Shown piece by piece: positions 4,423 through 33,272 of a stretch of DNA of 64,000 nucleotides. This DNA is from Candidatus Omnitrophota bacterium (GTDB taxonomy: Bacteria > Omnitrophota > Gorgyraeia > B26-G9): positions 5,445-69,444 of the forward strand of contig JBDRJV010000017.1 of NCBI GenBank assembly GCA_043814605.1. Reading direction: 5' to 3'. A model generated the notes under the pieces. It saw only the letters and a list, made by a program, of their open reading frames with translations. It was not told where the DNA came from and made no database searches. Position 1 is the stretch's first letter. Every line of letters starts with the position of its first letter. Made by a program: the position numbers and the translations under genes.

Positions 4423-6057
4423 ATGAAAAAAATCACTTTTGGCTTAAGAAGAAAACTGTATTTAGCTAGTATGCTGGTTACGATTATCGGTGCGGTAATC
4501 GTATGCTGGTATGTAATAACTTATTATCGGGTAATTATTACAGAAGATTTAGAGAAAAGGGCAATCACCTTAGCTAAAAATCTGGCACATGAATGTATCG
4601 GACCGATTATCTTAAAAGATGAAAACACTTTATTAAGTTTGGTTAATAGGATTTTAAAAGAACGTGATATAATTTATACGGCTATTTATGATAAAGACGG
4701 AAATATTCTCGTTCAAGGCGGGCCTTTTAATATAGAAAACATTCCTCAGTCAGTTAAGAAAAAATCTTTAATCACCCATGTAAATTTAGTACAAAAATAT
4801 TTATCCGCTAAGGAAAATTTAATTTATGATATTAGTGTTCCCCTGCATACTGAGGGTTCATTAGAGAACAATGATTCCGAAGACAAGAGCATAGATGAAG
4901 AAAGCCTTTTTTTCACAGGTGAAGGAAAAGAAAGTTTTAGTGTAAAAGTAGGATTAGCCAGAATTGGTATTTCTTTTAAAAACAGTAACCAATCAATTAT
5001 TATTCACCGTAATAAAATTATTTTTATAAACTTAGTGTTATACTGTATTTTTTTAATACTCATGCACTTTATTGTAAATTCAATACTTATGCCGATCAGC
5101 CTTTTATTAAAAGGAACTCAGAAAATCGGAGCCGGAGACTTGAACTATAAAGTTAGAATTAAAAGCTCAGATGAAATCGGACAACTGGCTGATTCTTTTA
5201 ATAAAATGGTAGACAATTTAAATATTTCGACAACATCCATTGAAAACCTTAACAAAGAAATTATGGAGAGAAAATTTGCCGAAGAAAAGCTAAAAGAAGC
5301 TTATCAGGAACTGAAAGAAGCCCAGCAGCAGCTTTTACAATCAAGTAAACTTTCCGCTATGGGGCAAATGGCCGCAGGCATATCCCATGAACTTAACCAG
5401 CCCTTGACCGGAATTAAAGGGTTTGCACAAATTTTAGCCATGGATTTAGGTAAAGACAGCCCCTATCTTACAGATGTAAATAATATTATTGAACAGGCAA
5501 ACCGCATGGATAGCATCATTCAAAATGTACGTTTTTTTGCGCGAAAATCAGAATTTAAATTAGAGAAATTAAATGTTAATGATCCGATAAAAAATGCAGT
5601 GAACTTACTTCAGGAGCAATTAAAAATACACAGTATCGAATTAATTTCGGAACTTGATCCGGATTTGCCGCAAATTTATGGAGATAATAATCAATTGCAG
5701 CAGATATTTTTAAATTTAGTAACTAATGGCCGCGATGCGATTGAGATGGCCCATAAATCTGAACCGGGAAAAATTATTATAAAAAGCCAGCAATGCAAAG
5801 AAGATAAATATATTTTAGTTACCTTCGAAGATAATGGCTGTGGAATTCATAAAGAAAATTTGGAAAATATTTTTAATCCTTTTTTTACAACAAAAGCACC
5901 GAATGGGGGAATGGGGTTAGGATTATCCATAGTTTATCGAATTGCTGAAAACCATAAGGCAATTATTGACGTTGAAAGTGAACAGGGGGAATTCACTATT
6001 TTTAAAATTATTTTCCCCGTTGCAGATGATTATATTGCCTTTGATAAAAAAGCTTGA
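4423..6057 (+). CDS. Sensor histidine kinase with two TM segments, extracytoplasmic domain, HAMP, HisKA, HATPase_c
   Basis: TM1 near residue 15 and TM2 near residue 200, followed by a HAMP-like linker (GDLNYKVRIKSSDEIGQLADSFNKM). H-box SHELNQPL. N/G-boxes (NLVTNGRDA, GGMGLGLSI). Confidence 0.85.
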   Translation: MKKITFGLRRKLYLASMLVTIIGAVIVCWYVITYYRVIITEDLEKRAITLAKNLAHECIGPIILKDENTLLSLVNRILKERDIIYTAIYDKDGNILVQGGPFNIENIPQSVKKKSLITHVNLVQKYLSAKENLIYDISVPLHTEGSLENNDSEDKSIDEESLFFTGEGKESFSVKVGLARIGISFKNSNQSIIIHRNKIIFINLVLYCIFLILMHFIVNSILMPISLLLKGTQKIGAGDLNYKVRIKSSDEIGQLADSFNKMVDNLNISTTSIENLNKEIMERKFAEEKLKEAYQELKEAQQQLLQSSKLSAMGQMAAGISHELNQPLTGIKGFAQILAMDLGKDSPYLTDVNNIIEQANRMDSIIQNVRFFARKSEFKLEKLNVNDPIKNAVNLLQEQLKIHSIELISELDPDLPQIYGDNNQLQQIFLNLVTNGRDAIEMAHKSEPGKIIIKSQQCKEDKYILVTFEDNGCGIHKENLENIFNPFFTTKAPNGGMGLGLSIVYRIAENHKAIIDVESEQGEFTIFKIIFPVADDYIAFDKKA

Positions 6058-6148: not shown

Positions 6149-6709
6149 ATGCCGGATACCTCTAAAGGTATGCTTTTTAATATGATCCTTAAGTTTATCC
6201 AACAAAAAGGTAAACCGGAATTAATCCATAAAATCAGCGCACAATTGGATAAACCGCTTAAATATATTGATTTTTTTGATTACCCTGTACAAGAATTAAT
6301 GCTGATTACTGAAAAAGCCGCTAAAGGTGTTTTCCCGGATAAAAAAATCGAAACAGCGTTATATACTCTCGCCCGAGAAACATTCACTATTTTAGCGCAA
6401 ACTCCTATCCTGAAAGCAATGCTACCCCGCGCAAAAAGAAATCCGATGAGTGTAGCGCAAAAAATTCCTTTTTTATACAGACAAATCAACTGTTTTGGTA
6501 ATATTTCAGTAGTTGATGTAAAAGAAAAAAGCTGCCGGATAATTTTTAAAAATTATAAAAGTTTTCCCCATTTACAACAAGGATTTTTACAACAAGCCTG
6601 TGATTATTTAGGTTTTATTACTGAAGTCAGTTTAGATATTATTAAGTTTAAAAATAATGGTAACGGGGACATTTTAACTGATTTTGATTTAAGTTTGAAA
6701 TTAAGTTGA
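6149..6709 (+). CDS. Cassette protein A1: ~186-aa conserved hypothetical, putative small-ligand sensor domain (paralog family of 4 in window)
   Basis: ORF with own RBS. 55-65% identity to 7286..7846 and 8327..8887. Conserved blocks TKGMxFN, GKPLKYIDFFDY, FKNYxSxPxLQQGFLQ, NNGNGDI. No TM segment or signal peptide. Confidence 0.7.
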   Translation: MPDTSKGMLFNMILKFIQQKGKPELIHKISAQLDKPLKYIDFFDYPVQELMLITEKAAKGVFPDKKIETALYTLARETFTILAQTPILKAMLPRAKRNPMSVAQKIPFLYRQINCFGNISVVDVKEKSCRIIFKNYKSFPHLQQGFLQQACDYLGFITEVSLDIIKFKNNGNGDILTDFDLSLKLS

Positions 6710-6731
6710 TTTTAAATCAGAGGAGGGTTCT

Positions 6732-7103
6732 GTGGGTAACCGCATAAAGTGGATAGTGTACAAGAACAAACGAATTCTTTTCCACGATTACTCAGGCATT
6801 AGAGGGTTTCAGGGTGAAGGGGAGCAATTAGCACAAGAGGTGAATGAGTTTGTAGAGAAATTGACAGAATATAATATTTTAGAATTAGTTGATGTAAGGA
6901 ATTCATTTGGTGATTTAGAATCAGTAAAAAGGCTTAAAGAAATATCTAAACGATTAAAGCCGCGCATAAAAAAATCTGCAGTAATCGGCGTTAGCGGGAT
7001 AAAAAAAGTTATTTTAGATGCAATTAATACTTTTTCCGAAAGAAAAATTAAACCGTTTAAAACTGAGGAAGAAGCAAAAGAATGGCTGATTTTGGAAGAT
7101 TAA
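6732..7103 (+). CDS. Cassette protein B1: ~123-aa STAS-like (anti-sigma-antagonist-like) protein, GTG start
   Basis: AGGAGGG RBS 4 nt before GTG. Conserved LELVDVRNSFGDLESV (resembles the DLSxVxFxDSSG phosphoserine loop) and a C-terminal …EEEAKEWL helix typical of STAS/SpoIIAA fold. ~70% identity to the copy-2 partner. Confidence 0.6.
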   Translation: MGNRIKWIVYKNKRILFHDYSGIRGFQGEGEQLAQEVNEFVEKLTEYNILELVDVRNSFGDLESVKRLKEISKRLKPRIKKSAVIGVSGIKKVILDAINTFSERKIKPFKTEEEAKEWLILED

Positions 7104-7145
7104 ATCGTTTTAAAGGTTTATAATATTATAATTTTTGGTTTATAC

Positions 7146-7240
7146 ATCCGCGGCCTAAAACCGCGCCCATTTATGGCGCGGATAAAAGGAGGCCGCTTGA
7201 GTATTCCACCCCAGGAACCACGGGCTTTAGCCCGTGGGGG
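7146..7240. repeat. GC-rich nested palindromic element (two strong hairpins) in the intergenic spacer between cassette copies 1 and 2
   Basis: Inner stem CCGCGCC-catttat-GGCGCGG (7161..7181) is nested inside GCGGCC…GGCCGC (7150..7196). A second hairpin CCACGGGC-ttta-GCCCGTGG lies at 7218..7237. GC content is far above local background. Confidence 0.45.
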
Positions 7241-7285
7241 TTACATTTCTGGATAATTTCTAAAAAGAAATCGAGAGAATTTTAA

Positions 7286-7846
7286 ATGCCGGCAACAACA
7301 AAAGGAATGTTTTTTAATGTGGCTTTTAAACTGATTACGGCAAAAGGTCACGCGGAATTAATAGAAAAAATCAGTAAAAAGCTGGGCAAACCTCTTAAAT
7401 ATATTGATTTTTTTGATTATCCCATAGAGGAATTTATGCTGATTGTCGAAGAGGCGATTAAATATATTTACCCGGATAAAAAATTCGAAGAAGCATTATA
7501 TATTTTATCCGAAGAATCATTTGACCTGATCATGCAGACCCCGATAATTAAAGCAGTATTATCCGGAGCAAAGAAAAATATGCAAAATATTGCAAAACGC
7601 ATTCCTTTTATCTATGAACAATTCAATCACTTTGGAAAAATTTCTATTATTGATTTAAAAGAAAAAAACTGTGTGATTGCTTTTAAAAATTATAAAACTT
7701 ATCCGGAACTGCAGCAGGGTTTTTTACAAAGAACCTTTGATTTTCTAAAGCTTAATCACACTGTAGAACTAAACATCCATAAATTTAAAAATAATGGAAA
7801 CGGCGATATTACCGCTGATTTTGATATAAGCTTAAAATGGGGTTAA
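7286..7846 (+). CDS. Cassette protein A2 (paralog of 6149..6709)
   Basis: Same conserved blocks and length (186 aa) as A1. Own start context. Confidence 0.7.
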   Translation: MPATTKGMFFNVAFKLITAKGHAELIEKISKKLGKPLKYIDFFDYPIEEFMLIVEEAIKYIYPDKKFEEALYILSEESFDLIMQTPIIKAVLSGAKKNMQNIAKRIPFIYEQFNHFGKISIIDLKEKNCVIAFKNYKTYPELQQGFLQRTFDFLKLNHTVELNIHKFKNNGNGDITADFDISLKWG

Positions 7847-7868
7847 TTTTTTATAAAGGGTGGTTTAT

Positions 7869-8240
7869 ATGACTAATCGGATAAGGTGGATAGTATATAA
7901 AAACAAGCGTATTCTTCTAGTTGATCTTTCTGGGATTAGAGGGTTTAAGGGCGAAGGGGAGCAATTAGCAAAAGCCGCGGCTGATTTTGTGGATAAATTA
8001 AGAGAATATGAGCTCATCGAATTAATTGATGTCCGGAATTCATTTGGTGATTTAGAATCAGTGAAAACAATGAAAGAACTATCTAAAAAATTAAAGCCGC
8101 ACATAAAGAAATCTGCAATCATTGGAGTAAGTGGGATAAAAAAAGTTATTCTCGATGCGATTAATTCTTTTGCCGAAAGAAAGATTAAACCGTTTAATAC
8201 AGAGGAAGAAGCAAAAGAATGGCTGATTTTAGAAGATTGA
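7869..8240 (+). CDS. Cassette protein B2, STAS-like (track start 7860 is GTG; ATG at 7869 preferred)
   Basis: MTNRIRWIVYKNKRIL…VRNSFGDLESVK…EEEAKEWLILED. ~70% identical to B1. Confidence 0.6.
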   Translation: MTNRIRWIVYKNKRILLVDLSGIRGFKGEGEQLAKAAADFVDKLREYELIELIDVRNSFGDLESVKTMKELSKKLKPHIKKSAIIGVSGIKKVILDAINSFAERKIKPFNTEEEAKEWLILED

Positions 8241-8326
8241 ATGTTAAAAAATTTTAAAGCATTAAAGGTTTAATAATTATTCGCTGAATTATTTAAATAA
8301 TAACTATTATGGGGAAGAGATTTTAA

Positions 8327-8887
8327 ATGCCAGAAACAGCAAAAGGTATACTTTTTAATGTAAATTTAAAATTCATTAAAAATAAGAATAAACCAGAATT
8401 ACTGGAAAAAATCAGTAAAAAGCTGGGCAAACCGCTTAAATATATTGATTTTTTTGATTATCCTGCCCAGGAATTATTGGTTATTGTTGAGGAAATTGCT
8501 AAAAATATTTTTCCCCATAAAAAAACTGACGAAGTTTACTATTTATTAGCACAGGAAAACTTTGCCACTCTTGCGCAAACACCGATTCTAAAAGCAATGC
8601 TGCCTCGCGCAAAAAAAAATCCGCGGATTATTGCGCCAAAAATTCCGTTTTTATATAAGCAAATTTACCGCTTCGGAGAAATTTCTGTGGTTGACCTAGA
8701 AGAAAAAAGCTGCCGTATAGTTTTTAAAAATTATGTTAGTTTGCCGCAGTTACAACAGGGTTTTTTGCAAAAAGTTTCTGATGTATTAGGGTTTAATCAT
8801 AAAGTAGGCTTAAATATCCACAAATTTATAAATAATGGTAACGGAGACATAAAAGCAGATTTTGATTTAACCCTTCGCTGGGATTAA
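8327..8887 (+). CDS. Cassette protein A3 (paralog)
   Basis: 186 aa, same conserved blocks. Confidence 0.7.
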   Translation: MPETAKGILFNVNLKFIKNKNKPELLEKISKKLGKPLKYIDFFDYPAQELLVIVEEIAKNIFPHKKTDEVYYLLAQENFATLAQTPILKAMLPRAKKNPRIIAPKIPFLYKQIYRFGEISVVDLEEKSCRIVFKNYVSLPQLQQGFLQKVSDVLGFNHKVGLNIHKFINNGNGDIKADFDLTLRWD

Positions 8888-8919
8888 AAATACTTAATTA
8901 TAAGGAGTAATAAAGTTTT

Positions 8920-9291
8920 ATGAGTAACCGCATACGCTGGATTGATTATAAGGGAAAAAAAATACTTGTGCACGATTATTCTGAACTTAAAGGATTTAAT
9001 AGGGGGGGAGAACAAGTTTTAAATGAAGTGTCTAATTTCATTGATAAATTAACTGAGAATAATATACTCGAATTAATTGATGTGAGAAATTCTTATGGCG
9101 ATTTAGACTCAATAAAAAAAATGAAGGAAATGTCCAAAAAAATGCAGCCGCATGTAAAGAAATGTGCAATAATCGGGGTGACGGGTGTAAAAAAAGTTCT
9201 TTTAGATACAATTAATGTTTTTTCCCAGCGCCAGATTAAACCGTTTGCCACAGAAGAGGAAGCCAAAGAATGGCTGGTGGCTGAGGATTAG
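8920..9291 (+). CDS. Cassette protein B3, STAS-like
   Basis: 123 aa with NSYGDLDS loop and C-terminal EEEAKEWLVAED. More diverged than B1/B2. Confidence 0.6.
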   Translation: MSNRIRWIDYKGKKILVHDYSELKGFNRGGEQVLNEVSNFIDKLTENNILELIDVRNSYGDLDSIKKMKEMSKKMQPHVKKCAIIGVTGVKKVLLDTINVFSQRQIKPFATEEEAKEWLVAED

Positions 9292-10056: not shown

Positions 10057-10085
10057 GGGGATAGTCTTATAGCTATCCCTTTTTT
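10057..10085 (+). terminator. Intrinsic terminator (GGGATAG-loop-CTATCCC + T6)
   Basis: 7-bp stem, 8-nt loop, TTTTTT run directly after the 9766..10020 gene. Part of a 37-bp element repeated at 13387..13423. Confidence 0.6.
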
Positions 10086-10086
10086 A

Positions 10087-10115
10087 TTGACTAAATGTAA
10101 AGATAGGAGTATGAT
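10087..10115 (+). promoter_or_regulatory. Near-consensus sigma70-type promoter TTGACT-17 nt-TATGAT
   Basis: -35 TTGACT at 10087..10092, exact 17-nt spacer, -10 TATGAT at 10110..10115. AGGAGGG SD at ~10150 precedes ATG 10163. Confidence 0.5.
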
Positions 10116-10162
10116 TCTTATATTAAATAATTACAAAAATAACTAAAAAAAGGAGGGTTAAA

Positions 10163-10387
10163 ATGGAAGGACAGGAAAGTAAGCATGACCGTTTTAAAAG
10201 ATTAGCCAGTAAAAGGGTTCAGAATGCCATTAAGAAAATAGAGATCATTGGTAATCTTGCCTCACCGGGGTATGAGTATTCAGAAGAAGATGTAGAAAAA
10301 ATCACAAGCTCACTTCAAGCAACTCTTGATCAGGTTAAAAACGCTTTTTCAAAAAGAAAGCCAAAAGTTCAGAACTTTACTTTATAA
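10163..10387 (+). CDS. Small Lys-rich hypothetical protein (74 aa) with strong expression signals
   Basis: Consensus promoter, AAAAAGGAGGG SD 6 nt upstream of ATG, and a 13-bp perfect terminator immediately downstream. No recognisable family. Confidence 0.6.
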   Translation: MEGQESKHDRFKRLASKRVQNAIKKIEIIGNLASPGYEYSEEDVEKITSSLQATLDQVKNAFSKRKPKVQNFTL

Positions 10388-10388
10388 A

Positions 10389-10424
10389 ACAGATTAAAAT
10401 CCTGATGATTTTAATCTGTTTTTT
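10389..10424 (+). terminator. Strong intrinsic terminator
   Basis: 13-bp perfect stem ACAGATTAAAATC / GATTTTAATCTGT, 5-nt loop, followed by TTTTTT. Confidence 0.8.
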
Positions 10425-10437
10425 GATTAAACATAAG

Positions 10438-10478
10438 TACAAACTCTGTAAATAAATTACAGAGTTTTTGTACTTTTA
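10438..10478. terminator. Second imperfect hairpin + T-run (possible back-up/bidirectional terminator)
   Basis: GTACAAACTCTGTA-aataaat-TACAGAGTTTTTGTAC, then TTTTAT. Confidence 0.4.
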
Positions 10479-10894
10479 TAAGGTTTTATGAATTTTGATA
10501 ATTTTTGATGTAAATAGACATCTATATGGACACCAGGTAGATGGGGCTACAGAGAATCTAACCCCAGTGGGCATATGAGACTTTTATCTTACATTAGTTC
10601 AATAAATACTTGACAATTTATTAAAATATGAGGAAGAAGTGGCGAAAATAGCGGCGGAGAACGAGTAGATATGAAACAATGGCGGAAGAAAAATAAAAGA
10701 GGAGATTTAAGATAGAAAGGGGCTATGCTGCCCCTTGAAGATAAATGAAGCGCAAAGCACCCTTGCCTAAACATTGCAAATTATCTAATGATAATTTGCT
10801 ACTAGGCTACGGGCATAAATTAGAACTTATTACTTATGTCACTTTGTTCCATAAGCAATGTTCTCATTTAGAAAACAGCCCTGGGAAACAGCGA

Positions 10895-11075
10895 TGATTT
10901 TCTAATGGTTTACTCACTACGACTTCGCTGCCAATTCGGCAGTCCTGCCTCAATGGCGTTCGTCCTGGCTGCATCTTCGTTCCTAAACCAAAGAAAATTA
11001 CCTGTCTCGCCGTGTTTGTGGCGGATATCGCTTGGTTTCAAAAGGGGATTAACAAAAGTTAAACCCTTTTAGTAT
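10895..11075 (+). promoter_or_regulatory. Candidate structured cis-regulatory RNA (GC-rich island in the 5' leader of the radical SAM gene, ending in hairpin AAAAGGG…CCCTTTT)
   Basis: About 50% GC inside a ~30% GC leader. Several local stems (CTGCC-aattc-GGCAG; CGCC-gtgtttgt-GGCG). The terminal 7-bp stem with U-tract at ~11040..11075 lies 85 nt before the start codon. No match to riboswitch classes I can recall. Confidence 0.3.
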
Positions 11076-11158
11076 ACTTGATAACAATAATGAAACATGG
11101 TATACTTTAATATTCAAACCTGTATAAAATAATATAATTAATTGAAAATAAAAGAGTT

Positions 11159-13345
11159 ATGATTAAAATTCGGATATTTAAAAGAGTTGTATCTATGATC
11201 TTACTGCAAGCCTTTTTGTTCGGGGCAGTTAGGTCAATCTATGTCTATGCTCAGGAACAGTCAATACTGAGTCCTCGAATAAGTTTGGGCCAGCCTGACT
11301 TGCAAACAGCAATGACCGAAAAAATGTCTTTAGCGCACTTTCCACCGTTAGATATTAGAGGAATAATAAAAGTAGGAAGAGGAGCAATAATATCAAAATC
11401 TTTGGTGACTAAAGAGGATCAAGCGTCCCAAGTTTTTTTTAAGAAAGCTTTACAGGGACTAGAACAGATCGAAACGATACAATGGTTTATAAATTTAAGA
11501 TGTGTTCTTAGATGCGATCACTGCTACTTAACACCAGAGCAGAAGAAAATGCCTCCTACCTCTTATCAGCAAGTATTAGATATTAGTAAAAAGATCAATA
11601 AACTCCCTGGGATTAAAGGAGTGGTAATTAACGGAGGGGAACCTTTTGCTAACCTTAAATTGATATATTTAGCATTAAAGGAATTAAAAGTACCAAAAAT
11701 AGGCCTTATGACTAGTGGTTTTTGGGCGAAAACACCTTTTATTACCAGTCGTGTTCTTGAAAATATAGTTAACGCTGCGGGAGATAAACACTTAGTTCTA
11801 CAAGTTAGTGTTAACGAATTTATTATGAAACAAAGAACCAAAAATAAAAAGCTTGGGTTTACTTTAGATAACTGGGTTAATATTATTAGGACTGTTGATG
11901 AACAATATTCTAAGAAAATTACTTTAGTGATTACATCTTTCTATAATGATCCAATATTCAATCAGTTAAAAAAGAAAATAGAGGACGAGGGTCTTAAAAT
12001 GCCTGAAGTCCGCAGATCAATAATGGAGTTTATTGGGCCAGCAGGAACCAACTTAGAGCGCAATGAATATAAGCAATGGGTTAATGTAGATAGCGCAGAC
12101 ATTTTTGTCCACAATAAATCTTTAGCAATCTATCCAGATGGGAAAGTAACTGTCGCTGCAGAGTTTTTAGGAGTATTAGAGGCAGGGAATATTTGTAAGC
12201 AGGGATTCCCAGACATTATTGATAATATTAATAAAGATTCATTATTCTACTTTGTTTTAACCAAGAAGGAACCAGCCAGACAATTATTAAGGATGGCTGC
12301 TCATTTTAACCCTGAGCTTGTAAATAAATGTAGCGATGAAATACTAGATGCTCCTAAAATTAGATTGCTGTTAGAAGATCCTATATTGAGATATTGTCTT
12401 AGAAAATTGGTGATTTGGAAGCTCTATAATGAACATGAACTTTTATTCATTGATGAAGATATGAAAAAATATGTCAACAAGCCTATTAGTGAGTTTATGT
12501 TGGAATTGGATAGAGAATACACTGGTCAAAAACAAGAAAAAGGAGAAGACGTAACCATAGTTAGTCTAAAAGATAAAATAATTATAGATTGGTTTGATAT
12601 TTCTAATCCAGCCACAGATTGGAAGAAAATATTTGGTAACAATAACAATCCCCAGGAACTTATAATTGGAAGTCTTTCGAGGTCTATGATCAAAGAAGCC
12701 CAAAAAAATCTTGCCAAGAATTATATCTGGGTTCAAACAATAAATCCTGCAGATACTACATATTTTATTGAGAAAGAAATTAGAGAAAAAAACATTCAAA
12801 ATGTCCGGTTAATCGATGCAGACATAAGAACGGCTATCCAGTCGATGTTTACCTTCGAGCAGATTTCTAATCTTTATGTATATTATACAGGAGCTGACAA
12901 ACGGATAGAAGAGTTTGAACGGCAAAAGTCAGGAGGAATGTATTATTCTGCTGATCCATATCTGCGGCATTTATATATAGAGATGCAGCAATCAGAATTG
13001 CAATATCCACCAAAAGGCTATTGGTTGGATTTTAGACAAGAAGGTTTATTACAGCGATTTTTAACCGTCATAAAAACAGGAGGTGTTTGTCATATCAGCA
13101 GCTGTGTTAGTGACTACATCGCTAGTGTTACCCGTATGATTGATTCTCATAAAATGGACATTCAGACTTTTGATAAGCCTAGTATGTTACCGGAAATAGG
13201 AGTCAACATAACTAATTATCTGGGGATTAGGAAAATACTACCTCTGAGTCCAAGTTGCTTAACGACCGCGAATGTTTCGATTCCTCAATTAAGAGCGAAC
13301 CCCGCTGGGACTTATCAATCGAAAATTATACAGAGTAGTATATAG
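11159..13345 (+). CDS. Atypical large radical SAM domain protein (728 aa) with N-terminal hydrophobic segment and ~450-aa C-terminal extension of unknown function
   Basis: CxxxCxxC motif CVLRCDHC at residues ~115-122, followed by a G-rich SAM-binding-like segment GVVINGGEPF. No SPASM/twitch Cys cluster seen. N-terminus MIKIRIFKRVVSMILLQAFLFGAV is hydrophobic. Confidence 0.75.
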   Translation: MIKIRIFKRVVSMILLQAFLFGAVRSIYVYAQEQSILSPRISLGQPDLQTAMTEKMSLAHFPPLDIRGIIKVGRGAIISKSLVTKEDQASQVFFKKALQGLEQIETIQWFINLRCVLRCDHCYLTPEQKKMPPTSYQQVLDISKKINKLPGIKGVVINGGEPFANLKLIYLALKELKVPKIGLMTSGFWAKTPFITSRVLENIVNAAGDKHLVLQVSVNEFIMKQRTKNKKLGFTLDNWVNIIRTVDEQYSKKITLVITSFYNDPIFNQLKKKIEDEGLKMPEVRRSIMEFIGPAGTNLERNEYKQWVNVDSADIFVHNKSLAIYPDGKVTVAAEFLGVLEAGNICKQGFPDIIDNINKDSLFYFVLTKKEPARQLLRMAAHFNPELVNKCSDEILDAPKIRLLLEDPILRYCLRKLVIWKLYNEHELLFIDEDMKKYVNKPISEFMLELDREYTGQKQEKGEDVTIVSLKDKIIIDWFDISNPATDWKKIFGNNNNPQELIIGSLSRSMIKEAQKNLAKNYIWVQTINPADTTYFIEKEIREKNIQNVRLIDADIRTAIQSMFTFEQISNLYVYYTGADKRIEEFERQKSGGMYYSADPYLRHLYIEMQQSELQYPPKGYWLDFRQEGLLQRFLTVIKTGGVCHISSCVSDYIASVTRMIDSHKMDIQTFDKPSMLPEIGVNITNYLGIRKILPLSPSCLTTANVSIPQLRANPAGTYQSKIIQSSI

Positions 13346-13386
13346 GAACGAAAAAGAAGTTAACTTCAGCAATATATAAACATATC

Positions 13387-13423
13387 AAGGGGTAGTATTC
13401 GGGCTATCCCTTTTTTATTGACT
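13387..13423 (+). repeat. Second copy of 37-bp terminator-like element (AAGGGG…CTATCCCTTTTTTATTGACT), direct repeat of 10055..10092
   Basis: About 32/37 identity with the copy at 10055..10092, including the T6-ATTGACT tail. Here the stem is degraded by a 1-nt deletion and there is no -10 element. Confidence 0.45.
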
Positions 13424-13673
13424 TAACTAGTAGCATAAGACTCCGAACCATCAGAGAGATAGTTAGTTGACTTTTCTTGCCAAAAACTTTAAACTAATTG
13501 TAATATTTTAATTTAACATTTATCATTCGTAATTTATAATTTGTCACTTGTCATTTGCCCCAAATGATGCAACATCTTTAGAGAAATCTTCGGGGGCCCG
13601 AAGAAAAACTTCTCTGGATATCCACATTCGGGATAATTTGTAATTCCCTCCAAAGGAGGGCGTGGGGTCATGG

Positions 13674-13749
13674 CGCAGTTGGGAGCGCGCCTCGTTCGCA
13701 ACGAGGAGGTCGGGGGTTCGAATCCCCCTGACTCCACCAAAAAAAATAA
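13674..13749 (+). tRNA. tRNA-Ala (anticodon CGC), CCA encoded
   Basis: Hand-folded cloverleaf: acceptor GGGGTCA/TGACTCC with G3:U70 wobble (Ala identity element), D-arm GCGC/GCGC, anticodon stem CCTCG/CGAGG with loop TTCGCAA, T-arm GGGGG-TTCGAAT-CCCCC, then ACCA. Confidence 0.85.
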
Positions 13750-13926
13750 ACCCTCGACCTCAAAAAGGGGATTTTAAGGGGAAAGATTGTTTCCCCTTAT
13801 CAGGGTATTAGAACTTCTTTGCGGAAGGAAAAGGACCAGTCCCGGCATAGGCGGGACGATAGGGGAAAACCTTAAGGGTTGTCCCCTATAGAGCGAATAA
13901 AATGAGCGATGAGGGCGGGGTTCGAA

Positions 13927-13957
13927 TCCCCCTGACTCCACCAAAAATGAGCAGAAG
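13927..13957 (+). repeat. 31-bp direct repeat of the tRNA-Ala 3' end (GGGGTTCGAATCCCCCTGACTCCACCAAAAA), att-site-like scar
   Basis: Identical to 13723..13753. Lacks the 5' half of the tRNA. Copies lie 204 bp apart. Confidence 0.6.
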
Positions 13958-13964
13958 GCTTACG

Positions 13965-14003
13965 CAACCAAAGGGAGCGTAAGCCTTTTTGCGAATTTAT
14001 ATA
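13965..14003 (+). terminator. Intrinsic terminator (11-bp perfect stem AAGGCTTACGC/GCGTAAGCCTT + T-run)
   Basis: Read directly. Lies just downstream of the tRNA 3'-end repeat. Confidence 0.65.
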
Positions 14004-14294
14004 GAGGAAGCTTTTGCAACGAGATGACTCCAATGCTCATTTTTAGTGTCCGTAGGGGAAAACGTAGTTTTCCCCTTTCGGCGCTCACCATCCTCATGGG
14101 GCTCGCTGTCACCCCTTTCCCAGAGGACTATTGCTTTTCAAGGAAAGGGAAGAGTCTTATCCTCCCTTTCCTTGGTAACCATACCTACCTAAAAAGGTGT
14201 CGACTTCGTCGACCAATAATTAAAAAAATTTTAAAAAATATTTAACGATAACCCAAGTTAGTATCCTATTTTTAAGCGATGCTATTGATTAAAG

Positions 14295-32733: not shown

Positions 32734-32817
32734 GCGGGCGTAGTGGGAGTGGTACCTGTGCCGCCACTTATTGAAAAACATCCTGAGATTATATCAGGGC
32801 GGCAGAACATCAGCTTC
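32734..32817 (+). pseudogene. Disrupted tRNA-Gly-like fragments (5' part GCGGGCGTAGTGGGAGTGG … GGCAGAACATCAGCTTC)
   Basis: Two segments, near-identical to the 5' acceptor/D-arm and the D/anticodon-stem of the intact tRNA-Gly ~190 bp downstream, separated by ~48 nt of unrelated sequence. Confidence 0.5.
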
Positions 32818-32925
32818 TAAAATGAGTATTTAACTTACGGAGTGAAACGACGAAAGTTAATTATGCGAATTTTATCCCGCCGGATTAAAGGCGGGGCCAA
32901 GCTGTTTATTGACAAATTAATTGAT

Positions 32926-32999
32926 GCGGGCGTAGTTCAGTGGCAGAACATCAGCTTCCCAAGCTGAATACGAGGGTTCGATTCCCTTCGCCCGCTCCA
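32926..32999 (+). tRNA. tRNA-Gly (anticodon CCC), CCA encoded
   Basis: Hand-folded: acceptor GCGGGCG/CGCCCGC, D-arm GTTC/GAAC, anticodon stem TCAGC/GCTGA with loop TTCCCAA, T-arm GAGGG-TTCGATT-CCCTT, then TCCA. Confidence 0.85.
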
Positions 33000-33118
33000 G
33001 AAGATGGAACTCCTAAGGGAATCGAAGCAAATGAGCGCCGACCCTAGGGAGGAAAAGCGAGCAGGATTGCGAGCGTCAGCGAATGCAGGGGAGCCTACGC
33101 AGAGAGCAATACGATGTT

Positions 33119-33177
33119 GCGAACGTAGTGGGCGATTTCCTTCGCCCGCTCCAGAAGATTGAACTCCTAAGGGAATC
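33119..33177 (+). pseudogene. Internally deleted tRNA-Gly pseudo-copy plus repeat of the tRNA's 3' flank
   Basis: GCGAACGTAGT|GGGCGATTTCCTTCGCCCGCTCCA reproduces the 5' acceptor and 3' T-arm/acceptor with the middle missing. 44-bp repeat (2 mismatches) of 32981..33027 including the downstream AAGGGAATC box. Confidence 0.55.
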
Positions 33178-33272
33178 AAAATTTATCCTGTATCATGCGA
33201 AGAATTGGTACAGGGAAAAAAACATTTTTTTGTATGAGATAATTAAGAGTAAATTAATTAGCAGGGGAAACA

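Follow-up and report, generated by a model that had tools for sequence, protein, structure and literature searches.

A dispersed Omnitrophota hairpin element and a candidate small RNA unit in the long gap upstream of a radical SAM gene

Background

The window (the whole 64-kb stretch of Omnitrophota DNA analysed here) is densely packed with genes, almost all on the + strand. One gap is unusual in this setting: 771 nt (10388-11158) separate the stop codon of a 74-aa ORF (10163..10387) from a radical SAM gene. What does this gap encode, if anything? An initial annotation read 10480-11158 as a ~700-nt leader with aptamer and expression platform, that is, as a riboswitch of the downstream gene, and noted two small ORFs in it as possible leader peptides or a precursor.

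The gap is as long as that reading implies, but the stretch is composite rather than a single leader, with a sigma70-like site, of a kind not above its frequency in shuffled sequence, between the terminal hairpin and the gene. The explanation that we propose, to which we give roughly even odds, is that the gap harbours an independent noncoding unit, consisting of a hairpin element, a candidate RNA of ~200 nt and a terminator, separate from the radical SAM gene. In this report, we describe the parts of the gap, the evidence that the hairpin element belongs to a family dispersed in Omnitrophota, and the competing explanations.

Results and discussion

Composition and layout of the gap

The features of the gap, together with the gene that follows it, are as follows.

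10386..10422, + strand: terminator-like hairpin 1 after the 74-aa ORF (perfect arms of 16 nt, 5-nt loop, T-run)
10441..10467, + strand: terminator-like hairpin 2 (11 pairs, then TTTTGTACTTTT)
10468..10716, no strand: purine-rich spacer, unmatched in every fetched locus and lacking a credible ORF
10717..10738, + strand: hairpin H0, AAGGGGC-TATGCT-GCCCCTT, kept in the L152 homologue at 5981-6001
10760..10813, + strand: hairpin P1 of element copy 1 (CCC/GGG, GCCTA/TAGGC, perfect 10-bp stem 10776-10799)
10816..10870, + strand: long hairpin of element copy 1 (covariance-model match 10805-10882, 61.4 bits, E = 1.4e-12)
10891..10997, + strand: conserved noncoding core of 107 nt, GCGATGATTTTCTAATGGTTTAC … CCAAAGAAAA, 86-89% identical to a metagenome contig (L152/L146)
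10998..11039, + strand: genome-specific arm with hairpin CGCC (11008-11011)/GGCG (11020-11023), absent from L152
11040..11071, + strand: terminator-like hairpin AAAAGGGGATTAAC-AAAA-GTTAAACCCTTTT (12 pairs including GGGG/CCC, AAAA loop), then TTTTAGTAT
11078..11106, + strand: sigma70-like promoter candidate for the radical SAM gene, TTGATA-17-TGgTATACT (TG-extended, 10/12 matches)
11159..13345, + strand: radical SAM gene encoding a near-orphan protein (the NCBI start is 11195, giving 716 aa)

Read in this order, two terminator-like hairpins after the 74-aa gene and an unconserved spacer would lead to a + strand unit at ~10717-11071, which would in turn be followed by the promoter-like site at 11078-11106. 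Repeated 38-nt motifs consisting of a terminator and TTGACT bracket 10058-13426. The 74-aa gene has homologues at 80-86% identity, but these have different downstream genes; a synteny search with them gave the first sight of the hairpin element described below. By blastn, neither the island nor the upstream half of the gap has a paralogue within the window.

The GC-rich island (10895..11075) is real but modest. Its GC content is 44.2%, and 100-nt windows peak at 47-48%, against a window mean of 34%; the earlier contrast of ~50% with ~30% was thus overstated. Such a GC content is reached by about 3.4% of all 180-nt windows, a large number of which are coding. The several stems noted in the 3' part of the gap agree with the folding of the + strand of 10756-11080 (z = -4.2 against 100 shuffles), which is suggestive rather than decisive. 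Within the purine-rich spacer, a hairpin at 10505-10597 folds with z = -1.5 on the + strand and -2.6 on the - strand.

The terminal hairpin, described earlier as AAAAGGGG…CCCTTTT, is likewise present, at 11040-11071 and 87 nt before the ATG at 11159. It combines a stable hairpin with a U-run, as intrinsic terminators do, although a simple terminator scan does not list it, and its GGGG/CCCC-TTTT arms are kept in L152.

Relation to the radical SAM gene

An Rfam scan, proposed as a check on the riboswitch reading, returned no riboswitch family at gathering score or at E<=10: with Rfam 15, the whole window at gathering score yields two tRNAs only, and 10350-11200 at E<=10 yields nothing credible. 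The radical SAM protein itself is nearly an orphan. An exhaustive search among 1.84 billion representatives retrieved just two other proteins at E<1e-10, both distant; in a word-indexed protein database the protein found only itself, and its exact sequence is absent from the contig index. There is consequently no family of homologous leaders for a covariation comparison, and the leader is not tied to a gene family.

Because there is no Rfam 15 family, because the sole homologue of the island has no co-oriented downstream gene in its locus, and because a plausible promoter lies downstream of the hairpin, the long gap is probably not a riboswitch leader. We consider it unlikely that the radical SAM mRNA carries a long 5' leader in which the GC island is an aptamer and 11040-11071 a terminator-type expression platform. 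The order of structured domain, hairpin with U-run, and gene does fit such a leader, and resembles riboswitch and terminator-attenuator leaders such as SAM-I and TPP, where a structured 5' domain and a hairpin with a U-run likewise precede the gene, here one for a SAM-using enzyme. Also in its favour, both candidate ribosome-binding sites (11149-11158 and 11179-11188) contain TAAAAGAGTT, with which the 3' arm of the hairpin, AACCCTTTTA, shows 90% complementarity, in sequence that is low-complexity A/T. Moreover, the promoter match past the hairpin is not statistically compelling: the region has 8 sigma70-like sites against 6.1 ± 2.3 in shuffles, and neither 11078-11106 nor a weaker match at 10768-10795 is above chance frequency, so transcription may read through into the radical SAM gene. 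Unlike those known leaders, however, this one shows no aptamer match in Rfam, its core recurs in L152 without a co-oriented downstream gene in that locus, a promoter-like site intervenes, and the gene is a near-orphan with no family attached to the leader. The hairpin element also normally stands directly before the start of a unit, which fits an RNA of its own, yet in one locus (L122) a TPP riboswitch leader begins there too.

Small ORFs

Both small ORFs exist where they were reported (10745..10897, 50 aa, and 10905..11072, 55 aa, both on the + strand), but their interpretation as leader peptides or a precursor found no support on closer analysis. Genes of this window have a mean codon log-likelihood of +0.29 ± 0.11 per codon (5th percentile +0.12), compared with -0.18 for the 50-aa ORF and -0.04 for the 55-aa ORF, and in the latter GC is flat over the codon positions. 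No Shine-Dalgarno (SD) site precedes either ORF in the sequence, and a concatenated query of all six-frame stop-free segments has no protein homologue at E<=10 among 5.8 billion proteins. In L152, a 4-nt indel shifts the frame of the 55-aa ORF while the DNA there is still ~90% identical. We therefore rejected both ORFs as genes on codon statistics and homology search, and the longer one also on its broken frame.

A peptide-coding role of the ORFs (a RiPP precursor on which the radical SAM enzyme acts, say, or a small membrane protein) strikes us as very improbable on this evidence, to which the lack of a radical SAM gene near the L152 homologue adds. The idea draws on their position directly upstream of the radical SAM gene and on the best NCBIfam matches of the radical SAM core, which are peptide-modifying maturases such as YydG (E = 3.7e-7), a weak likeness far below the family cut-off. 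These results remove from 10480-11158 a tempting but unsupported riboswitch call, as well as two spurious peptide genes.

Structure and covariation of the hairpin element

The most conserved piece of the gap (10805-10882) lies just upstream of the GC-rich island and belongs to an element found at many other loci. This element consists of a variable hairpin, P1, that abuts a long hairpin flanked in the DNA by AATTCG and CTCATT. Its pattern is AATTCG … ACTTATG-loop-TTCCATAAG … CTCATT, with helices P0, P2a and P2b. In the long hairpin, a base helix of 5 bp (nAAU/AUUn) is separated by a conserved UC/UC internal loop from a helix of 4 bp; beyond a bulge follows a helix of 10 bp that ends in ACUUAUG/CAUAAGU and is closed by a loop of 11 to 25 nt. 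CUCAUU is itself base-paired with AAUUCG. Of 116 copies elsewhere, 96 have a P1, which ends 0-2 nt from the element.

Copy 1, in the gap, has this pattern, the helices and an abutting P1. Its landmarks are AATTAG (10818-10823, one change from the consensus AATTCG), the 5' arm ACTTATG (10832-10838), the 3' arm CATAAG (10850-10855) and CTCATT (10863-10868), and all its helices are paired except for one A·C. The weak sigma70-like match mentioned above (TAAACA-16-GATAAT, 10768-10795) falls within P1. Unlike typical gene-facing copies, which have an SD site and a start codon within ~20 nt, copy 1 is followed by neither an SD site nor a credible ORF.

Covariation in the element is strong. In an alignment of 127 sequences, 96.5% of cells in the 14-pair core are paired, or 92.1% with the base helix included. 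Six pairs show many compensatory types (one reads GC in 52 sequences, AU in 40 and UA in 19), and the base-helix pair adjoining the SD site reads UA in 41, AU in 38, CG in 18 and GC in 3. The covariation score of 0.397 compares with 0.105 in shuffles, none of 500 of which reached it, and with 0.02-0.07 in slid controls. Rfam 15 contains no family for the element, canonical copies in other loci included, and the searchable Omnitrophota literature yielded no description of it.

The non-Watson-Crick cells complicate a simple RNA interpretation. G·U occurs in 38 of them and A·C in 50 (18 and 27 in copies that face gene starts). Strand-specific selection on RNA does not usually leave G·U no commoner than A·C, and equal numbers despite strong covariation raise the question of whether the RNA is under selection or a palindrome is being maintained in the DNA. 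The element could act either as an RNA hairpin or as a palindromic DNA start signal. Comparing G·U with A·C did not tell which strand is functional, as no bias appeared even when copies were split by gene context.

Distribution of the element

The exact pattern occurs in at least 120 stretches of species-representative genomes, mostly labelled Omnitrophota, and the covariance model gives 181 matches in the 720 kb of 100 loci. Extra copies in the flanks of seeded loci suggest about one element per 9-20 kb; extrapolated from this flank density, a genome would carry roughly 100-200 copies. One of the genomes with the element is that of Ca. Velamenicoccus archaeovorus, from the LiM enrichment (L070); in all, 176 complete Omnitrophota genomes are reported in a preprint (bioRxiv 10.64898/2026.06.07.730766).

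Copies are placed nonrandomly with respect to genes. About 74% face a gene on the same strand, and 86 of 138 have an ORF of 60 aa or more downstream. The start codon typically lies 1-18 nt past the end of the element, with distances clustering at 9-18 nt. Where this distance is at least 8 nt, an SD-like site is present in 63 of 70 copies; in 13 others, the start codon is only 1-4 nt away, which leaves no room for one. Ten downstream genes checked with Pfam all proved to be housekeeping genes (GroEL, GroES, S8, CSD, RRF, ArgG, TopA, L28, RF1 and AccA). Some of the ~38% of copies with no long ORF downstream precede RNAs: a tRNA-Met starts 5 nt past CTCATT in one locus, and the P1 helix of the TPP aptamer in L122 starts within CTCATT. 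The element also occurs between the cistrons of an operon (rpsN-rpsH). Inverted copies elsewhere lie directly after the stop codons of co-directional genes, and an inverted weak copy, P1 and a strong copy can be seen together. Certain orthologous positions are common to species (RF1 twice, S11 twice and a third pair at 63% identity).

The window holds two further copies, both beside tRNA sequences.

13932..14010, - strand: element copy 2, its CTCATT end 4 nt from a duplicated 3' fragment of tRNA-Ala
32807..32884, - strand: element copy 3, its CTCATT end abutting a 5'-half fragment of tRNA-Gly

In copy 3, the P1 side faces an intact tRNA-Gly 42 nt away, and the locus L055 shows the same geometry.

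Conventional promoter readings of the element found no support. Pairs of sigma70-like -35 and -10 boxes show no enrichment at a set position anywhere between 130 nt upstream of the element and 70 nt into it, and the 50 nt upstream of P1 carry no information content. By eye, we considered and rejected sigma54, ECF, sigma28 and T7/T3-like promoters and a reading of CATAAG as a -10 box. In each case the spacing is wrong, the positions concerned are variable, or the SD site, which has to lie inside the mRNA, would not do so. The T3-like appearance of CTCATTAAAGGAGG is most simply explained as CTCATT followed by an SD site. Long-range pairing of inverted and direct copies into one giant hairpin was rejected, as their variable stems are unlike each other and every local hairpin is paired within itself. 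For complementarity with CUCAUU, a pattern for the 3' end of 16S rRNA was sought among the loci; these contain no 16S sequence, and the single match lies in a protein-coding region read as nusB.

A conserved core with one homologue

Downstream of copy 1, the core (10891..10997) contains the hairpin GCTGCC-AATTC-GGCAGT, and a closing strand ATCGC in the genome-specific arm (10998..11039) pairs with GCGAT at 10891. Its predicted helices include UUUUCU/AGAAAA, GGUUUA/UAAACC and GCUGCC/GGCAG. The segment 10891-11001 folds with z = -3.1 on the + strand and -1.8 on the - strand, values that are suggestive without being decisive. Only one homologue of the core was found, that in L152/L146. There a copy of the element also precedes the core (40.5 bits), and its CTCATT end faces the core in both genomes. 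The gene contexts are unrelated: in L152/L146 the element-plus-core unit lies between two opposite-strand genes, and the locus has no ORF of 60 aa or more downstream in the same orientation.

Across the two genomes, the core has kept ~90% identity, and divergence is much greater in P1 and the hairpin stems of the unit. The predicted core pairs are all invariant between the window and the homologue, and an ACGA to GCAA substitution breaks one pair of the minimum-free-energy fold of the window without compensation. L152 also has a 42-nt insertion inside the core, with GGCGAGACCTCGCC and then T8, that looks like a strong + strand terminator, so a full-length RNA would be truncated there. Direct repeats of ~90 bp with iteron-like words lie on both sides of the unit in L152, which suggests a duplicated or inserted cassette. 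Searches for further copies brought no match by blastn of the leader against plasmid and phage collections and no exact match of two core words in viral contigs; in a 19-mer metagenome scan, 23 of 25 matches were unrelated sequence, mostly apparently coding.

According to the initial annotation, a leader with neither conservation in related genomes nor covariation would be simply noncoding spacer. This outcome was not borne out for the 3' part of the gap, which is more than spacer by that same measure, since it is structured, noncoding and conserved.

Proposed explanation and its competitors

In the explanation that we propose, the element would mark a place where an RNA 5' end forms, either as a transcribed hairpin that is recognized or cleaved or as a palindromic start signal in the DNA. 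After copy 1 there is no gene to start; what follows instead is ~200 nt of GC-richer, foldable, noncoding sequence closed by the intrinsic-terminator-like hairpin. The most likely product would be a small noncoding RNA running from ~10866-10875 to ~11075 and expressed independently of the radical SAM gene. Among the marks of a stand-alone sRNA, a terminator and conservation independent of neighbours are present, and the presumed start signal is taken solely from the behaviour of the element elsewhere. Stand-alone bacterial sRNA genes are similar in their length of ~200 nt, their terminal hairpin with a U-run, their conservation in different gene contexts and their lack of coding signal. The putative unit differs from them in that it has no family match and has a phylum-specific element in place of a recognizable promoter.

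A broader and more tentative hypothesis is that the ~75-nt dyad-symmetric module (P1 with the AATTCG…CTCATT hairpin) is a phylum-specific, general 'start here' signal for a large share of the transcription or translation units of Omnitrophota, acting either as an atypical promoter of hairpin or palindromic type or as a universal 5' leader removed by cleavage, and that with the GC island we see the first of a new family of small RNAs expressed from this signal. We see this as possible, although the balance of our judgement is against it. If it is true, the units served would range from protein genes with and without SD sites to tRNAs, riboswitches and small RNAs. An element that sets RNA 5' ends would amount to a lineage-specific 'punctuation' of gene expression in a phylum without a cultured isolate, and it could be used to mark gene starts, operon boundaries and noncoding RNAs in Omnitrophota genomes from metagenomes.

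The element and core could alternatively be a nonfunctional or mobile cassette, that is, repeated or translocated DNA (MITE-like, REPIN-like or the relic of an integrative element) whose conservation reflects recent common origin. We put the chance of this at about one in four. Such a cassette would explain why the unit occurs in unrelated gene contexts in two genomes, and the ~90-bp direct repeats of L152 and the terminator-like insertion inside its core, the 38-nt terminator and TTGACT repeats around 10058-13426, and the position of copies 2 and 3 among fragments of tRNAs and duplicates of their 3' ends, scars that integration typically leaves, all agree with it. So does the lack of a G·U bias over A·C; in DNA, covariation can be mimicked when quasi-palindromes are 'corrected' by template switching. 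However, the core is far less diverged than the hairpin stems and P1, which argues that the core is under constraint and against a uniform recent transfer. The element family is also kept across a phylum, at fixed distances from the start codons of housekeeping genes and in some cases at orthologous positions common to species, and no transposase or integrase is apparent nearby, nor is there a match in plasmid, phage and viral collections.

Known repeat families are instructive here. REP, BIME and REPIN sequences, ERIC/IRU and the Correia elements of Neisseria are intergenic hairpins in many copies, often in inverted pairs around a spacer; they may be co-transcribed, and expression signals can lie within them or be affected by them. 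The Omnitrophota element is like them in its many dispersed hairpin-forming copies and in its inverted pairing. Families of this type are limited to a species or genus and lie mostly 3' of genes, whereas the Omnitrophota element keeps a sequence core across a phylum, is biased in orientation, ends 1-18 nt before housekeeping start codons and has no known associated transposase.

The functional strand might also be the opposite one, in which case an RNA would run from near the 11071-11040 hairpin to H0, with the element read as its reverse complement. We hold this to be quite improbable. In its support, the - strand gives the better fold of the 611-nt region (z = -5.25 versus -2.17 on the + strand, with 20 shuffles only), H0 scores as terminator-like on that strand, and elsewhere inverted copies of the element lie right after co-directional stop codons. 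Yet the core folds better on the + strand (z values above), the U-tract of H0 is poor (TCTATCTT) in both the window and L152, and the CTCATT end faces the core in both genomes, just as it faces genes elsewhere.

Comparison with known start and processing signals

Whichever way the proposed start signal acts, three known systems bear on it. In the boxB-boxA (nut-like) antitermination signals of rRNA operons, a hairpin is likewise followed by a short conserved single-stranded word, and there is a likeness between CUCAUUAA and the boxA core CUCUUUAA. In a comparison made by eye, CUCAUU[A/U/G]A departs from the boxA (NusB/NusE site) consensus GCUCUUUAACAA at one core position, its flanks vary or covary, and the remainder of boxA is missing or variable. 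The element stands before ordinary protein genes, and its CUCAUU is itself paired with AAUUCG; we treat the likeness as a resemblance only.

DNA-level start signals built from inverted repeats exist in the hairpin promoters of phage N4 virion RNA polymerase and in dyad-symmetric bidirectional promoters. In common with such signals, functional RNAs begin a few nucleotides past the element, no fixed sigma70 consensus lies upstream, and G·U is not favoured. We know of no bacterium that uses promoters of this kind for housekeeping genes; moreover, the genome has ordinary sigma70-like sites as well, the loop of the element ranges from 11 to 25 nt, and inverted copies face the 3' ends of genes.

RNase III processing sites and 5' stabilizer hairpins are represented by the T7 early mRNA sites, the lambda N leader and the ompA 5' hairpin. 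To our knowledge, such sites lack strongly conserved stem sequences and are not reused at hundreds of loci, in contrast to the element. The likeness lies in an irregular long hairpin with an internal loop, located directly 5' of a ribosome-binding site and also between cistrons; a hairpin of this kind would create or protect a defined mRNA 5' end.

A long gap upstream of a radical SAM gene

The 771-nt gap (10388-11158) between the 74-aa ORF (10163..10387) and the radical SAM gene (11159..13345) is unusual because the window (34% GC) is gene-dense, with tightly packed genes nearly all on the + strand. The initial annotation proposed a riboswitch-like leader with a GC-rich island, a terminal hairpin and two small ORFs. 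We give about an even chance to a different order: two terminator-like hairpins of the 74-aa gene, a spacer, an independent noncoding unit, and the radical SAM gene's own promoter-like site. The unit would comprise a hairpin element recurring in Omnitrophota, a conserved core of ~200 nt and a terminator.

Features of the gap
10717-10738, hairpin H0
10805-10882, + strand, Omnitrophota hairpin element (adjoined by variable hairpin P1)
10891-10997, conserved noncoding core
10895-11075, GC-richer island
11040-11071, terminal hairpin
11078-11106, candidate promoter

The gap, the terminal hairpin and both small ORFs are present as described. The island is GC-richer than the rest (44%, peaking at 47-48% in 100-nt windows); the claimed contrast of ~50% with a ~30% background was too sharp, as the mean is 34% and ~3.4% of all 180-nt windows equal or exceed the island. 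Folding z-scores are -2.6 (+ strand) and -2.3 (- strand) for 10880-11090, -3.1 (+) and -1.8 (-) for the conserved core, and -4.2 for the + strand of 10756-11080. The minimum-free-energy fold of this last segment shows four domains, with P1 and a long hairpin followed by a branched domain at 10885-11038 and then the terminal hairpin. Further 5', in the half of the gap that lacks conservation, there is also a long irregular hairpin (10505-10597; z -1.5 on + and -2.6 on -), for which a search found no homologue.

Known RNA families, leader model and small ORFs

At gathering scores, the only Rfam 15 matches in the whole window are two tRNAs; ARAGORN finds the same two and no tmRNA. Even at E≤10, Rfam yields no credible match in 10350-11200, which speaks against a known riboswitch. 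Nor is a leader conserved in front of homologous genes. Relatives of the 74-aa gene are 80-86% identical to it, and what lies downstream differs in every genome. The radical SAM protein, identical to the NCBI entry 'MAG: radical SAM protein [Candidatus Omnitrophota bacterium]', is itself a near-orphan. A word-indexed search returned only the protein itself, and an exhaustive search of 1.84 billion representatives found two others at E<1e-10, the better being 33% identical over residues 106-452 only. Judged from these comparisons, a family of homologous leaders does not appear to exist, and we consider a riboswitch leader of the radical SAM gene quite improbable.

The small ORFs, suggested as possible leader peptides or a precursor, have noncoding statistics. 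In codon log-likelihood, the 55-aa ORF scores -0.18 and the 50-aa ORF -0.04 per codon, versus +0.29 ± 0.11 in 55-codon windows of real genes here. GC by codon position is flat in the 55-aa ORF (0.45/0.48/0.45; gene pattern 0.44/0.31/0.29). Every stop-free six-frame segment of the region, concatenated and compared with 5.8 billion proteins, gave no match at E≤10, and Pfam found no domain in the three ORFs tested. The sole homologue of this DNA has a 4-nt indel that puts the 55-aa ORF out of frame, with nucleotides still ~90% identical. We judge that the ORFs are not genes; that they encode peptides is extremely improbable.

A structured hairpin element in Omnitrophota

Comparison of the gap by blastn with loci carrying relatives of the 74-aa gene gave weak recurrent matches, all within window positions 10760-10871 and all intergenic, just 5' of genes. 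Aligned, these matches share a hairpin with an invariant ACTTATG…TTCCATAAG…CTCATT. The pattern ACTTATGTN{3,20}TTCCATAAGN{5,9}CTCATT was then scanned in one genome per GTDB species and matched at least 120 stretches, several contigs belonging to one genome. Among the matches listed, titles are mostly Omnitrophota or Omnitrophica, about 12 are labelled Planctomycetia, Planctomycetales or Planctomycetota, a few only 'bacterium', and one Ratteibacteria; NCBI assigns Omnitrophota to the PVC group. At E<1e-3, a covariance model of the element (R1) gives 181 matches across 100 loci totalling 720 kb, ~80 of them beyond those seeded. Canonical copies from other loci match no Rfam family, and we found no description of the element in searchable literature.

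Parts of the element, from the outside inward, as aligned over 127 distinct copies
Helix P0: outermost, 5 bp, nAAU/AUUn
Internal loop, 2×2: inside P0, UC/UC, >90% conserved
Helix P2a: 4 bp, inside the UC/UC loop
Bulge between P2a and P2b: usually A; in several copies a small inserted hairpin instead
Helix P2b: 10 bp, ending in ACUUAUG/CAUAAGU
Terminal loop: 11-25 nt, with a nested hairpin in some copies

Covariation is strong at positions that the search pattern left free. In the 14-pair core of the hairpin, 96.5% of cells are paired, versus 30-45% in slid controls; compensatory changes of several types occur at six pairs, and the covariation score is 0.397 versus 0.105 ± 0.007 in shuffles, 0 of 500 of which reach it. 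With P0 included, 92.1% of cells are still paired, and the SD-adjacent pair occurs as UA 41, AU 38, CG 18 and GC 3. Stems vary even among copies within one genome and yet stay paired, which argues against mere co-evolution with a DNA-binding protein. Of 116 copies, 96 have P1 directly on their 5' side (median span, 46 nt).

Genomic positions and possible modes of action

Among 138 copies with enough downstream sequence, 86 precede an ORF of at least 60 aa. Start codons concentrate 9-18 nt 3' of CTCATT, with an SD-like site in 63 of 70 lying at ≥8 nt; in 13 copies the start codon follows by 1-4 nt, too close for an SD. The ten downstream proteins checked with Pfam are GroEL, GroES, S8, a cold-shock domain protein, RRF, ArgG, TopA, L28, RF1 and AccA, with RF1 and AccA in the class lacking an SD. 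One copy lies between rpsN and rpsH in the spc ribosomal-protein operon. In other loci, tRNA-Met begins 5 nt past CTCATT (L083), and the P1 helix of a TPP aptamer begins within CTCATT (L122; 42.6 bits, E 2.5e-7, against a gathering score of 54.3). By eye, this aptamer (L122 727-949) looks like one with a large insertion: its conserved 3' word, CTGGATAATGCCAGCG, is repeated ~100 nt downstream, with a second weak match at 881-949. Functional units start within a few nucleotides of the element's 3' end, whatever the mechanism.

Strong copies point towards a nearest long ORF on their own strand in 81 cases (58 within 30 nt) and towards one on the opposite strand in 29 (19 within 30 nt). In back-to-back pairs, a weak inverted copy just past the stop of a co-directional gene is followed by P1 and a strong copy before the next gene.

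We tentatively read the element, at somewhat less than even confidence, as part of the transcript, a hairpin at the 5' end or between cistrons that would be recognised or else cut at its base. Covariation reaching the strand that touches the SD, structure kept despite insertions, the copy inside an operon and inverted copies in 3' trailers all favour this RNA role; against it, G·U pairs (38) are not more frequent than A·C (50), nor in copies facing a gene start (18 versus 27). That parity, and the absence of a sigma70-like promoter at every fixed upstream position examined, would fit a palindromic DNA start signal whose arms are held complementary by template-switch correction, a mutational process. 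We hold this reading only slightly less likely than the RNA role; against it, none of the known promoter geometries tried fits the element, and copies in inverted orientation would direct transcription into genes. That the element is mainly a selfish repeat seems improbable, and some other mode of action still more so. A few copies occupy orthologous positions in different species: two cases at RF1, two at S11, and a third pair 63% identical.

Tandem arrays of two or three copies ~120 nt apart, with no intervening gene and nearly the same P1 and stems within an array, occur at L053 2866-3857, L015 and L089. At L126 4559-5417, a 200-bp tandem duplication, with P1 and an element copy in each repeat, comes after a tmRNA gene (173 bits).

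Copies in the window

With filters off, R1 finds three copies, none followed by an SD and ORF.

10805-10882, + strand, 61.4 bits, followed by the GC island
13932-14010, - strand, 44.4 bits, adjoining a tRNA fragment
32807-32884, - strand, 43.1 bits, adjoining a tRNA fragment

The 3' end of tRNA-Ala(cgc) (13664-13739) has an exact 31-nt copy 204 nt further on (13713-13743 = 13917-13947), which resembles an att-type duplication. DNA between and after these copies, rich in GC and in hairpins, is ~70% identical over 270 nt to positions 1-256 of L104, from another Omnitrophota genome. Upstream of tRNA-Gly(ccc) (32926-32999), part of the gene's own 5' half recurs, interrupted by an insertion (~32735-32815). 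The 3' end and trailer of the gene form a 48-nt repeat (32979-33026 and 33133-33180, 94% identical), the trailer carries the reverse complement of the T-arm, and 33016-33135 is 77% identical to DNA 3' of a tRNA-Ala in L006/L007. Window 32807-32925 and L055 2430-2550 share an inverted element, P1, ~28 nt and a tRNA gene on the other strand; neither has a recognisable promoter between P1 and the tRNA.

A conserved core beyond the element

None of 128 genome loci searched matches 10895-11075 or 10470-10760. Scanning metagenomes with a 19-mer taken from the island gave 25 matches, 23 of them in unrelated, mostly apparently coding sequence. The other two, L146 and L152 (the latter on the 112-kb contig Ga0307991_1000037), do not differ from each other in the compared region and match window positions 10862-10947 at 86% and 10947-10997 at 89%; the core is therefore not mere spacer. 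Aligned with the window, L152 has the same order of parts: H0, P1, a variant element (40.5 bits) and the core, GCGATGATTTTCTAATGGTTTAC…CCAAAGAAAA. The core is far less diverged than P1 and the element stems. L152 has a 42-nt insertion and the 4-nt indel, the window has an extra arm (10998-11030), and the terminal hairpin keeps its GGGG/CCCC-TTTT arms. The insertion holds GGCGAGACCTCGCC and then T8, terminator-like on the + strand.

The L152 unit sits between two opposite-strand genes (5313..5759 and 6687..7640), with no + strand ORF of at least 60 aa downstream within the locus. The core thus occurs independently of a downstream gene, and of a radical SAM gene, contrary to its proposed place in a leader. 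The main rival to an independent noncoding unit, a translocated or decaying cassette with no RNA function, we consider unlikely. Caution about the unit comes from the two-sequence comparison, in which all 35 predicted core pairs are invariant or gapped and none has a compensatory change, and equally from the terminator-like insertion and the flanking repeats of L152.

Direct repeats of ~90 bp flank the element-plus-core unit in L152 (5820-5925 and 6415-6520); rich in CAATAG/CCAATRG words, they look iteron-like.

The radical SAM gene and its surroundings

The candidate promoter, TTGATA-17-TGgTATACT, is TG-extended and matches at 10 of 12 positions. Transcription from it would begin near 11113, ~45 nt 5' of the ATG at 11159. 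Promoter-like matches in the region show no excess over shuffles (8 versus 6.1 ± 2.3), so the gene could also be reached by read-through from upstream. With each of the two candidate ribosome-binding sites, the 3' arm of the terminal hairpin shares 90% complementarity; these are low-complexity A/T words.

NCBI places the start of the gene 12 codons downstream of 11159. The N-terminus resembles a signal peptide by eye; for the C-terminal 270 residues, the sole Pfam/NCBIfam match is methyltransferase-like, weak and below threshold.

A 38-nt terminator hairpin with the motif TTTTTTATTGACT occurs twice (10058-10095 and 13389-13426, 84% identical), bracketing the 74-aa gene and the radical SAM gene with the gap between them; these repeats could be a cassette boundary or merely a common terminator-promoter design. 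Further upstream, 6149-9291 holds three tandem paralogous gene pairs, each encoding a 186-aa DUF2378 protein and then a 123-126-aa SpoIIAA-like (STAS) protein; DNA identity among the pairs is 60-76%.
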